A stretch of 13,358 nucleotides of DNA from Promethearchaeia archaeon (GTDB lineage: Archaea > Asgardarchaeota > Lokiarchaeia > Sigyniarchaeales > SOKP01): contig JAHQWG010000054.1 in NCBI GenBank assembly GCA_029856045.1, forward strand, positions 1-13,358, given 5' to 3'. Numbering within the stretch: position 1 is the first letter of the stretch; each line of letters opens with the position of its first letter. The notes under the pieces were generated by a model that was not told the origin of the DNA, did no database searches, and saw nothing but the letters and a program-made list of their open reading frames with translations. Positions 10,825 to 13,358 of this stretch are shown here, piece after piece. Both the position numbers and the translations under genes were made by a program.

Positions 10825-10861
10825 TTTAAATAAAAAAGTTCCAATGAATAACATATTCATT
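10825..10861 (+). promoter_or_regulatory. Candidate gar1-tfb promoter: TATA box plus downstream inverted repeat
   Basis: TTTAAATA at 10825-10832 preceded by an A-rich BRE-like stretch, then AATGAATA-ACA-TATTCATT (perfect 8-3-8) at 10843-10861. Confidence 0.45.
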
Positions 10862-10888
10862 CTAACAATACTTTTACGTTCCCCTTAC

Positions 10889-11158
10889 ATGACTTGGATC
10901 AAATTAAACTTAAATTTCATTGGAACTTCTAAAAAAAATCAGATTTTTAGGTCAAGAGCATTCAAAAAGGGACAATTTAATATTTATAGTCCAGTATTCG
11001 ATAAAAAAATGAATATGATTGGACACATAAAAGATATTTTTGGTCCGGTAGATATGCCATTTGTTTCACTTCAACAGGATACAAACACTAAGCAAGTTGA
11101 TTTTGACTTCTCCTCTGAATCTCTTTTTACAAAAATGAAGAAATCAAAAAAAAAGTAG
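10889..11158 (+). CDS. gar1: H/ACA ribonucleoprotein subunit Gar1/Naf1 family
   Basis: VFDKKMNMIGHIKDIFGPVDMPFVSL matches the archaeal Gar1 core (V.D....IG.V.DIFGPV..PY). gar1 upstream of tfb is a known archaeal synteny. ATG 10889 is preferred over 10844, which lies inside the promoter palindrome. Confidence 0.8.
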   Translation: MTWIKLNLNFIGTSKKNQIFRSRAFKKGQFNIYSPVFDKKMNMIGHIKDIFGPVDMPFVSLQQDTNTKQVDFDFSSESLFTKMKKSKKK

Positions 11159-12166
11159 CTGACTAAAAAAAATTTTTCCCCCAAAATTAAAAAAGGTGTT
11201 AAAGACATCGGAAATTGGAAATTAAAATTTAAAAATCAACCTTTATTTGATGATATTTGCCCTGAATGTGATAGTAAACTAATTATTTATGATGAAAATA
11301 GAGGACAAATGATTTGTGAATATTGTGGACTTGTAATAAAGGAAAAATTCATTGATAAAGGTCCAGAGTGGCGAGCTTTTGATGCAGATCAAAAAAAGAA
11401 ACGAACTCGTGTAGGAGCACCCATGACATATCTTATTCATGACATGGGGCTTAGTACGATGATTGATTGGAAAAATAAAGATATATACGGCAAAGAAATT
11501 CCAGCAAAACTCCGAGGGCAAATATATAGGCTAAGAAAATGGCAAAGTAGAATACGTGTATCGGATGCTACAGAGCGAAATCTAACATTTGCACTAAGTG
11601 AATTAGATAGAATGGCATCAAATTTAGATTTGCCCAAAAATTTAAGGGAAACAGCCGCAAAAGTCTATCGTGACGCGGTAGATGCTCATCTAATACGTGG
11701 AAGAAGTATTGAGGGCGTTGCTGCAGCTTCCTTGTATGCAGCGTGTAGAATATATAAAATACCAAGAACTCTAAACGAAATTTCTGAAATTGCAAGAGTA
11801 AATAAAAAAGAGATTGGGCGCTCCTTCAGATTTATCTCCCATGAATTAAACTTAAATCTGAATCCAACAAAACCTTTTGATTATATAACACGCTTTACCT
11901 CTGAACTAAAATTGTCTCAAACTTGTCAAAAAATTGCAATGAAAATTATCGAAATTGCAGAATCTCGAGGTTTAATTTCAGGGCGTGGCCCAACCGGCGT
12001 GGCTGCAGCAGCAATCTATTTCGCTTCTATTTTATCGAAAGAAAAACGTACCCAAAGGGATATTGCTCGAATTAGTCAGGTCACAGAAGTAACTGTGCGT
12101 AATAGATATAAAGAATTAGCTGAAAATTTGAATTTTAAACTTCCTTTCAGAAGAAATACCTATTAA
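11159..12166 (+). CDS. tfb: Transcription initiation factor IIB (TFB); true start uncertain but upstream of the ORF-track ATG 11309
   Basis: Full Zn ribbon CPEC-x16-CEYCG (first Cys at 11258), B-reader GPEWRAF...RVGAP, LRKWQ.R.R...ERNL, two cyclin repeats ([16 protein letters not shown]; [14 protein letters not shown]) and [22 protein letters not shown]. The frame is open back to CTG 11159. Confidence 0.95.
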
Positions 12167-12290
12167 AAAAGAAAAGTGATTTTTGACTTTCTTGTAATGC
12201 CATAAAATATCTTAACTCCAATAATTTTCTTCAAAAAAAAATTAAGGCTACGAATTTTAACTCTTAATTTATTTTACGTCTTTCATTTAA

Positions 12291-12347
12291 ATATTATCTT
12301 CATATTCTTTTATTTTAAAAGGAAGATTAAATTTGATTAGCTTAAAG
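12291..12347 (+). repeat. Non-coding repeat copy 1 (57 nt), candidate promoter cassette
   Basis: 44/57 ungapped identity (manual count) to 12801-12857 at an offset of exactly 510, including the exact 16-mer ATATTATCTTCATATT and a 20/23 match over GATYAAATTTGATTA..TTAAAG. Confidence 0.8.
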
Positions 12348-12390
12348 TTATTATCATAACAAATTTAGTTATCAAGAAAGTTAAGAAAAA

Positions 12391-12660
12391 ATGAATGGAG
12401 AAAATATCAAATTGATTAAGAATTTACTTAATCTAGATGATATTAATGAGGAAAGTGTTATTAAATTCTTAAAGCATATAAAAAATACTAAAGAAATTAA
12501 AAAATCACCTGAAATTATATCAGATCATGATCCAACGCGAATTTTAGCAGCGGCAGCCATAATAATGGCAAATAAATTGTCAAAAGAAAAAAATGTATCG
12601 GATAAATCTATTCAAAAACGTTTTAGAGAATTAATAAGGAGTTTAAATATAAAACTCTAA
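12391..12660 (+). CDS. Mini-TFB: stand-alone divergent TFIIB/cyclin-box repeat with an internal HTH deletion
   Basis: ISDHDPTRILAAAAIIMANKLSKEK--NVSDKSIQKRFRELIRSLNIKL aligns with [24 protein letters not shown][[10 protein letters not shown]][22 protein letters not shown] of the adjacent TFB; 23/46 identical by manual count. Confidence 0.75.
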   Translation: MNGENIKLIKNLLNLDDINEESVIKFLKHIKNTKEIKKSPEIISDHDPTRILAAAAIIMANKLSKEKNVSDKSIQKRFRELIRSLNIKL

Positions 12661-12800
12661 TTTTTAAAAAATCAACTTTAATTTTTTTGCAAATCTCAGT
12701 TTAACCTTCAATTTTTTATTACATCTCCTTTAAAGAATATAATTTTGCATTAAATTCCAGTTCAATATAAATTTATCCATTACCTCATTTTCTTCGCATT

Positions 12801-12857
12801 ATATTATCTTCATATTATACAGTTTAAAAAAATCGATCAAATTTGATTAAATTAAAG
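12801..12857 (+). repeat. Non-coding repeat copy 2 (57 nt), candidate promoter cassette
   Basis: Counterpart of 12291-12347. It ends 40 nt before ATG 12898; copy 1 ends 43 nt before ATG 12391. Confidence 0.8.
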
Positions 12858-12897
12858 AAATATTGAAAATTTTAATTAAAATTTAGTCTGTTGAATT

Positions 12898-13233
12898 ATG
12901 CTCATAACTCAGCAAATGGTTGATGAACTCTTAAAAAAAATTAAAAAAACCTTTCCAAATTTTATTGCAGGAGTTTTATCCGATGAAAATGGATTCCCAA
13001 TTGCATCAAAGATTCCAAAAAAGTTAAAAATTGATGAGGATTTTTTTGCATTAGCTGCGACTGATGTAAGAATTGCGAATGATTTTATGGATTTCTCAAA
13101 ATACACAAAAGTTATGAAAGAAATTGGAAAAAAAGAGAAAATAAAATTATTGGTTTTATTGAAGAAATCTGCAAAATATTCGCATAAATTTCAGCAGTTA
13201 AATGAAGTACTCTCTAAACAATCTCTTTTCTAA
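12898..13233 (+). CDS. Roadblock/LC7-like small protein (divergent)
   Basis: N-terminal helix VDELLKKIKKTFPN followed by FIAGVLSDENGFPIAS resembles the roadblock helix + beta-hairpin pattern (...DG..IAS). The C-terminal half is less recognisable. Confidence 0.55.
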   Translation: MLITQQMVDELLKKIKKTFPNFIAGVLSDENGFPIASKIPKKLKIDEDFFALAATDVRIANDFMDFSKYTKVMKEIGKKEKIKLLVLLKKSAKYSHKFQQLNEVLSKQSLF

Positions 13234-13358
13234 AAATATGGTTAAATTTTTTAATCTCCTCCTCCTAAATAGTATAATAAAGTTAGTTGTTTATTTATTA
13301 TATTAGGGTTTTTAAATAAAGAAAAGAAAACTTATTTGAAGCTCAAATTTAAAGATAA

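Follow-up and report, generated by a model that had tools for sequence, protein, structure and literature searches.

An open reading frame (ORF) of 89 codons, located between a gene for a TFB (tfb) and a gene for a small protein with a predicted Roadblock fold (rbl), appears to be a chimera of these two neighbours. It is carried by contig JAHQWG010000054.1 of a Promethearchaeia archaeon (Lokiarchaeia), the whole of which (13,358 nt, the window) was analysed; the genome, G000, has a size of 3.34 Mb and a GC content of 29%. The order of genes at the locus, all on the + strand, is a gar1-like gene, tfb, the 89-aa ORF and the 111-aa rbl. The N-terminal ~40 residues of the ORF are assigned to rbl residues ~40–81 and the remainder to the TFB, and the ORF is therefore regarded as an rbl–tfb chimera, most probably generated by a tandem duplication that reached from inside tfb across the promoter into rbl and was trimmed later. 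Both halves of the ORF are homologous to the adjacent genes, the block preceding rbl is found a second time in front of the ORF, the locus is unduplicated in outgroups, and the ORF is restricted to one lineage. An initial annotation of this DNA had named the ORF 'mini-TFB' and ascribed it to a ~510-nt duplication. The features of the locus are as follows.

~11162–12166, + strand: parent 1, the gar1-linked TFB, with two TFIIB repeats (Pfam TFIIB 3.4e-49, Zn_Ribbon_TF 3.7e-17)
11951–12142, + strand: TFB donor segment, residues 264–327 (end of H2', H3', H4', H5'), homologous to chimera residues ~35–89
12047–12076, + strand: TFB codons 296–305, H4', the first helix of the helix-turn-helix that reads the B recognition element (BRE); no counterpart in the chimera
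12180–12184, + strand: T5 tract 3' of the tfb stop, putatively terminator-like in archaea
12291–12347, + strand: promoter block copy 1 (P1), ending 43 nt 5' of the chimera ATG
12291–12308, + strand: P1 box, ATATTAT-N4-ATATTCT
12313–12320, + strand: P1 TATA-like element, TTTTAAAA
12325–12340, + strand: P1 element, GATTAAATTTGATTAG
12391–12660, + strand: chimeric 89-aa ORF (the 'mini-TFB'), intact in G001, G002 and G004, with distant relatives P0006, P0004 and P0007
12397–12498, + strand: rbl-derived part of the chimera, residues 3–36, homologous to rbl residues ~40–76 (hhalign)
12493–12499, + strand: putative joint GAAATTA, E35-I36 / K37 (family consensus K-E-I-A-K-S)
12499–12657, + strand: TFB-derived part of the chimera, residues 37–89 (H3' and H5' of cyclin repeat 2, without H4')
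12661–12688, + strand: T5 (12661–12665) and T7 (12682–12688) tracts 3' of the chimera stop, putatively terminator-like
12801–12857, + strand: promoter block copy 2 (P2) before rbl, ending 40 nt 5' of the rbl ATG
12801–12818, + strand: P2 box, ATATTAT-N4-ATATTAT
12823–12832, + strand: P2 TATA-like element, TTTAAAAAAA
12835–12850, + strand: P2 element, GATCAAATTTGATTAA
12898–13233, + strand: parent 2, rbl, a predicted Roadblock/LC7/MglB-fold protein of 111 aa (AlphaFold2 (AF2) model and Foldseek)
13015–13126, + strand: rbl donor segment, residues ~40–77, ending with GAAATTG at 13120–13126
10844–11158, + strand: gar1-like gene (Pfam Gar1, E 1.4e-5), whose linkage to tfb recurs in relatives

The two halves of the ORF

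Three genomes of the same genus (G001, G002 and G004) carry the ORF intact and at the corresponding position (88–91% identity). A hidden Markov model (HMM) was run against 1.84 billion representative proteins and, together with a subsequent word search, provided three distant members of the family, P0006 (89 aa, 69% identity), P0004 (81 aa, 47%) and P0007 (91 aa, 48%), all of which keep the frame, the stop position, a gap at H4' and conserved columns in both halves. A further candidate from the HMM search, the 881-aa repeat protein P0005, was judged spurious, being arginine-rich and unlike the AT-rich lineage.

ORF residues ~35–89 are homologous to the C-terminus of the adjacent TFB (BLASTP E 2e-9), as evidenced also in hhalign comparison (probability 90.8%, and 95.5% with a richer alignment, E 1.4e-8) and at the nucleotide level, where the similarity to the tfb 3' end (z 6.7) was reached by none of 500 shuffles. 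The resemblance noticed in the initial annotation was thus confirmed, as was its expectation that the ORF would branch with the neighbouring TFB rather than with a different paralog. Four full TFBs are encoded in the G000 genome, and the ORF HMM scored the adjacent one with 26.6 bits and the three other paralogs with ≤8 bits. A tree of repeat 2 puts the ORFs, whose branch is very long (3.2), within the clade of gar1-linked TFBs and next to the congeneric TFB (support 96/78), and SKEK and the terminal KL are common to the ORF and the TFB of the same clade only. The ORF had further been taken for a complete TFB repeat 2, which was not supported, given that homology to the TFB is confined to residues ~36–89. 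Within this part, every family member shares a gap of 10 residues opposite TFB 296–305 (H4'; numbering counted from 11162, the TFB start codon being uncertain), leaving H3' and the recognition helix H5'. No Cys pairs are present in the 89-aa ORF, Pfam Zn_Ribbon_TF matches the parent TFB only, and no Pfam TFIIB match to the window ORF was observed at E≤1; among the relatives, P0004 (18.8 bits) and P0007 (15.3 bits) both fall under the gathering threshold of 23.6. Of the hallmarks of TFB/TFIIB proteins, the zinc ribbon with the B-reader/linker, two complete cyclin repeats and an intact H4'–H5' helix-turn-helix are missing from the ORF. Without zinc ribbon, B-reader, repeat 1 and H4', it is therefore not a TFB.

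The N-terminal ~40 residues compare with the TFB at null level (hhalign score 11.7, probability 0.2%). Using a 9-sequence family alignment including P0006, P0004 and P0007, residues 3–41 matched residues 40–81 of the rbl family (hhalign E 1e-5 to 1e-7, probability 82–94%), with a score of 38.9 against a mean of 10.6 (sd 2.0, maximum 20.0) in 300 column shuffles, none of which attained it. Alignment columns 1–25 and 23–44 matched rbl separately and co-linearly, at residues 40–65 and 63–82, respectively (0/150 shuffles each). In the reciprocal comparison, the rbl HMM scored P0007 with 21.3 bits and P0004 with 15.2 bits, the shuffle maxima being 12.3 and 9.4, respectively (0/500 equal), and a search of 22,069 six-frame genome ORFs with the N-terminal HMM returned the adjacent rbl as the best non-self match (E 0.033). 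This piece corresponds to the alpha2–beta3 region of the Roadblock fold. The complete Robl_LC7 domain (alpha-beta-beta-alpha-beta-beta-beta, ~100 aa) is not present in the ORF, which represents only rbl ~40–81 and gave no Pfam match; holding only the middle of the fold, the chimera is therefore not a Roadblock protein.

The annotation of the downstream gene itself as 'roadblock' holds at the level of the fold and not at that of Pfam or NCBIfam, neither of which gave a match to rbl. At the sequence level rbl displays a weak match to Roadblock (PDB profile E 0.4–0.6). Its AF2 model, with a predicted local distance difference test (pLDDT) score of 81, has MglB and Asgard Roadblock structures as top Foldseek matches (template modelling (TM) score up to 0.73, probability 1.00), and rbl is accordingly predicted to carry the Roadblock fold. 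The rbl genes of G001 and G002 lack 9 nt (3 codons) at 13063–13071, in a loop of the Roadblock fold that is prone to indels; the chimera is likewise 3 residues shorter there than the G000 rbl.

A putative promoter block of rbl is present twice

A direct repeat of 57 nt, 12291–12347 and 12801–12857, shows 77% identity at a spacing of exactly 510 nt, as originally annotated, and outscores all 500 dinucleotide shuffles (z 7.5). The first 16 nt of the block, ATATTATCTTCATATT, occur exactly twice in the 3.34-Mb genome, both times at this locus. Outside the block, the similarity between the two spacers is at the level of shuffles (z 0.5).

In relatives, the rbl element comprises two 7-nt direct repeats 11 nt apart (e.g. 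ATAATAT-N4-ATAATAT) and, after 5–8 nt, TTTAA(A/T)G. It sits ~85–100 nt 5' of the start codon, is kept even where the neighbour is not tfb, and its box was seen upstream of rbl in at least 14 other family genomes. Trained on rbl promoters of 13 genomes, all outside the G000 clade, an HMM found its best match in the whole G000 genome in P2 (12801), with only one other match at E<1, and the identical 16-mer is present in P1. This other match, at contig C7:5689, has no TATA-like element and no obvious downstream gene, and was rejected. The possibility that the block is a genome-wide motif, under which the matching offset would be fortuitous, was not borne out by these searches, with the 16-mer at two sites only and ~2 genome matches of the promoter HMM at E<1. 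The element is specific to rbl and not genome-wide, and the block before the new ORF is therefore its duplicate. It would act as an active promoter, and, judged from its sequence, the rbl promoter region resembles a double TATA element or a site bound by a dedicated regulator.

P1 and P2 are closer to each other in G000 than in the sister genomes. Gene conversion was considered for this closeness, and retention of the ancestral state in G000 explains it equally well. Between the TATA-like element and the rbl start, several genera (L042, L044 and L040) carry a CCTATCA...TGATAGG inverted repeat, possibly a leader hairpin or an operator; 3' of the two G000 blocks, leader hairpins scored no better than shuffles (z −1.1 and +0.3), and only a weak counterpart of the inverted repeat was observed.

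The locus in related genomes

Among 135 genomes of the family and 154 of the order, the ORF was found only in the four carriers. The arrangement gar1–tfb–rbl on one strand, with a spacer of 129–295 nt and no ORF, is present in 10 genomes of 8 other genera, thereby providing the unduplicated tfb–rbl arrangement that the initial annotation had expected in relatives. Two metagenome scans revealed no further loci, and a scan of genome contigs gave only the three known ones. Contigs from two independent studies cover 11300–13358 without gaps, and no joint skipping the unit was seen; the locus is not an assembly artefact, because the contigs of both studies span this interval.

The ORF was not found in G003, a genome of the same genus that is 69% complete and has tfb and rbl on separate contigs. 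In G003, the most divergent member of the genus (L062 and L063), the gene after tfb encodes a membrane protein on the reverse strand, and a 120-aa ORF precedes rbl and its promoter box on the other contig; the locus has been rearranged there. In G014 (L064:2202-2795) and G015 (L065:2164-2757), an unrelated 197-aa gene is located between tfb and rbl; insertions have therefore occurred repeatedly in the tfb–rbl spacer.

Reconstruction of the duplication

The starting point would be an ancestral locus gar1–tfb–[spacer with rbl promoter]–rbl. A single tandem duplication of ~650–680 nt, with its left end in tfb (~11951, codon 264) and its right end in rbl (~13126, codon 77), both at a common GAAATTG, would have yielded intact tfb, spacer with promoter, the rbl 5' part joined to the tfb 3' part, spacer with promoter, and intact rbl. 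The hybrid ORF would thereby have received the rbl promoter and leader along with the rbl 5' part, with which its start codon probably came as well. Later in-frame losses of ~37 codons at the 5' end of the rbl part, 3 more codons and the 10 H4' codons, together with an earlier stop, would have cut the unit to the present 510–515 nt and the ORF to 89 codons. We infer the exact break points and the order of the later deletions from the present-day sequences.

The sequence of the putative joint would fit this proposal. GAAATTG occurs in both parents (TFB 11951–11957, rbl 13120–13126), and the chimera reads GAAATTA at 12493–12499; the consensus of the joint, K-E-I-A-K-S, equals rbl K-E-I plus TFB (E-I-)A-E-S. 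The lengths also agree: 216 nt (11951 to the tfb stop), ~230 nt of spacer and 222 nt (rbl codons 1–74) add up to ~668 nt, and subtraction of 111, 9 and 30 nt leaves ~518 nt, compared to the 510–515 nt observed. A 5' part of the downstream gene joined to a 3' part of the upstream gene between two intact parents is accounted for by tandem duplication across two genes, and the order of the parts, the intact parents, the intergenic sequence in two copies and the unduplicated outgroups were all found at this locus. The tandem duplication in a tfb–promoter–roadblock locus put forward initially is thus upheld as regards a local duplication with a promoter copy, but the unit extended into rbl and did not consist of just the tfb 3' end and the promoter.

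Two points weigh against the reconstruction itself. The microhomology is read from the present-day parents, and 6–7-mers are common at 29% GC; besides, a second event is needed, the loss of rbl codons ~2–38, which has left no direct trace. Against the rbl origin of the N-terminal part stands that, within G000 alone, the match to rbl is not significant at the nucleotide or single-sequence level (nor, in the same comparison, is that to the TFB). The rbl signal stems from the family profile, and mostly from P0004 and P0007, known here as proteins; relative to rbl, divergence is greater in the G000 clade than on the P0004/P0007 branch.

The alternative offered by the initial annotation is a ~510-nt duplication of only tfb repeat 2 and the intergenic promoter, the ORF being a complete, diverged repeat 2 with its ATG at the joint. 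The block spacing of 510 nt, the offset of 515 nt between the ORF ends and the C-terminal homology to the TFB all fit with it, and the helix pattern of a low-confidence AF2 model loosely fits a cyclin repeat. The terminal KL codons do end at 12142 in the TFB and at 12657 in the ORF, and the spacers from KL to the block measure 148 and 143 nt, as had been read from the sequence. However, the claim that three offsets agree could not be sustained: the only significantly alignable coding stretch pairs 11951–12046 with 12493–12591, at an offset of 542–545 nt, not 510, and the offset is not constant along the locus, being 542–545 in the coding part, 515 past the 10-codon gap and 510 at the block. 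The ~510-nt period would then be the remnant of the ~650–680-nt unit after later in-frame losses. The ATG minus 510 does give the start of TFB repeat 2 arithmetically, yet no alignment accompanies it, and the first ~40 residues of the ORF are unlike the TFB; the agreement appears to be coincidental. With the N-terminal 40 residues at null level against the TFB and matching rbl significantly and co-linearly, we consider this duplication improbable. It is more improbable still that the ORF came from elsewhere, be it a different TFB paralog, a virus or some mobile element, with the upstream block being a convergent or regulon-wide motif: the adjacent TFB is its best match and shares clade-specific residues with it, the 16-mer is confined to two sites with ~2 genome matches of the promoter HMM at E<1, and no mobile-element genes are found nearby. 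TFB homologues are reportedly mentioned in publications on Asgard viruses, but nothing specific speaks for such an arrival. A tandem duplication from inside tfb into rbl is hence favoured over both.

Is the chimera a maintained gene?

The ORF is probably a real gene, because the distant members, at 47–69% identity, keep the frame and the stop position. In neutral-decay simulations, a frame of 89 codons stayed open in only 0.1–1% of runs (~8% of random codons are stops in the G000 genome), and all indels in the ORF are in frame. The spacer sequence has been randomised since the duplication, yet the frame of the ORF is still open. Taken together, our assessment leans, with some reserve, towards a maintained gene for a small helical protein that may be expressed from the copy of the rbl promoter.

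Several results count against a maintained gene. In the four close genomes, omega, the ratio of non-synonymous to synonymous rates, is 0.67 (6 synonymous and 17 non-synonymous changes; p 0.27). Synonymous sites of the ORF changed at 0.118 per site and spacers at 0.116–0.118, compared to 0.415 for tfb synonymous sites; over 12167–12897, compared with G001, G002 and G004, spacers and ORF evolve 3–4 times slower per site than tfb does at its synonymous sites. AF2 modelled the ORF with low confidence (pLDDT 57), and no clear Shine–Dalgarno motif was found before the ORF. The rates themselves are complicated by segment topologies that disagree: in the second spacer G000 is ~10% away from the other three genomes, whereas the rbl genes of G000 and G004 share 97% identity. 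The disagreement suggests that these lineages have recombined or that there is constraint at the nucleotide level, and recombination would confound the rates.

It is conceivable, although we rate it as rather unlikely, that the duplication is real and the ORF a decaying relic still open by chance, the conservation coming from regulatory DNA or the rbl leader RNA. An omega not significantly below 1 would be expected of such a relic, as would the similar rates of synonymous, non-synonymous and flanking spacer sites (all ~0.08–0.12 per site, 3–4 times below tfb synonymous sites) and the low pLDDT of an ORF made of incomplete pieces of two folds. The rarity of surviving frames in the simulations and the in-frame indels speak for retention instead, as do the relatives of 47–69% identity, with their common stop position and conserved columns in both halves, and the T-tracts 3' of the ORF together with the promoter copy 5' of it.

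The start of tfb

From the upstream TAG, which is the stop of gar1 and shares the tfb frame, to the zinc ribbon of the TFB (11156–11311 of the window), no in-frame ATG, GTG or TTG was found. G004 and G002 have an in-frame GTG before the zinc ribbon; in G000 and G001 this GTG (11196) is put out of frame by one base within an A-run. The sequence GGTG-TAA-xxT-ATT is present in several other genera, with a conserved ISSWKE peptide after it. These sequences point to ATT/ATC as a candidate start codon of tfb (ATC 11207 in G000).

Discussion

Known chimeric genes that arose by tandem duplication across adjacent genes have the same topology as this locus: the 5' end and regulatory region of the downstream gene are joined to the 3' end of the upstream gene, and both parents stay intact on either side. 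The Asgard case differs from them in the absence of introns, in its greater age, with neutral sequence randomised, in the in-frame deletions that followed, and in a product of 89 aa that combines fragments of two unrelated folds, neither of them complete. In bacteria, promoter capture through tandem duplication has reportedly also taken place in the E. coli long-term evolution experiment, in the rnk-citT module. Promoter recruitment has been described for proto-genes (PMC11101190). In these systems, local duplication likewise puts a coding sequence behind an existing promoter; there an intact gene gains expression, whereas here a new frame was assembled from two gene fragments and retained in natural lineages.

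Sulfolobus TFB3 is likewise a lineage-restricted, shortened TFB derivative without a working C-terminal helix-turn-helix, and it keeps the N-terminal zinc ribbon and acts on the pre-initiation complex (PMC6101594). Unlike TFB3, the chimera has only two helices of the C-terminal repeat, without zinc ribbon, B-reader and first repeat, and its N-terminus is from a Roadblock protein. Compared to the Asgard Roadblock/LC7/MglB proteins (PDB 7yh1, 9jue and 7f8m), whose fold rbl is predicted to have, the chimera carries ~40 middle residues, without the first helix and strands and the last strands, and cannot form the fold alone.

Being built from incomplete pieces of two folds, the chimera is therefore neither a working TFB nor a working Roadblock protein. 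A role touching Rbl or the transcription machinery is speculation. The alpha2–beta3 region is the dimer interface in Roadblock/LC7/MglB proteins, and the chimera, if produced together with rbl under the duplicated promoter, could be imagined as an adaptor that docks on Rbl or poisons its dimer, its C-terminal piece retaining H3' and H5', linking Roadblock/small-GTPase signalling to basal transcription or DNA, a proposal to which we attach very little weight.

To our knowledge, the origin of most 'orphan' genes confined to single archaeal or bacterial lineages cannot be traced. Here, all the main elements can be seen: the ancestral order in sister genera, the intact parents, the promoter in two copies, a plausible joint, the trimming and the diverged descendants. 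The locus thereby offers a natural example, within one group of Asgard archaea (Lokiarchaeia), in which the birth of a gene can be traced. It also advises caution in naming ORFs by their most recognisable half, since 'mini-TFB' would wrongly suggest a transcription factor. A small new Asgard gene can arise from fragments of two unrelated folds, inheriting the promoter region of one parent.

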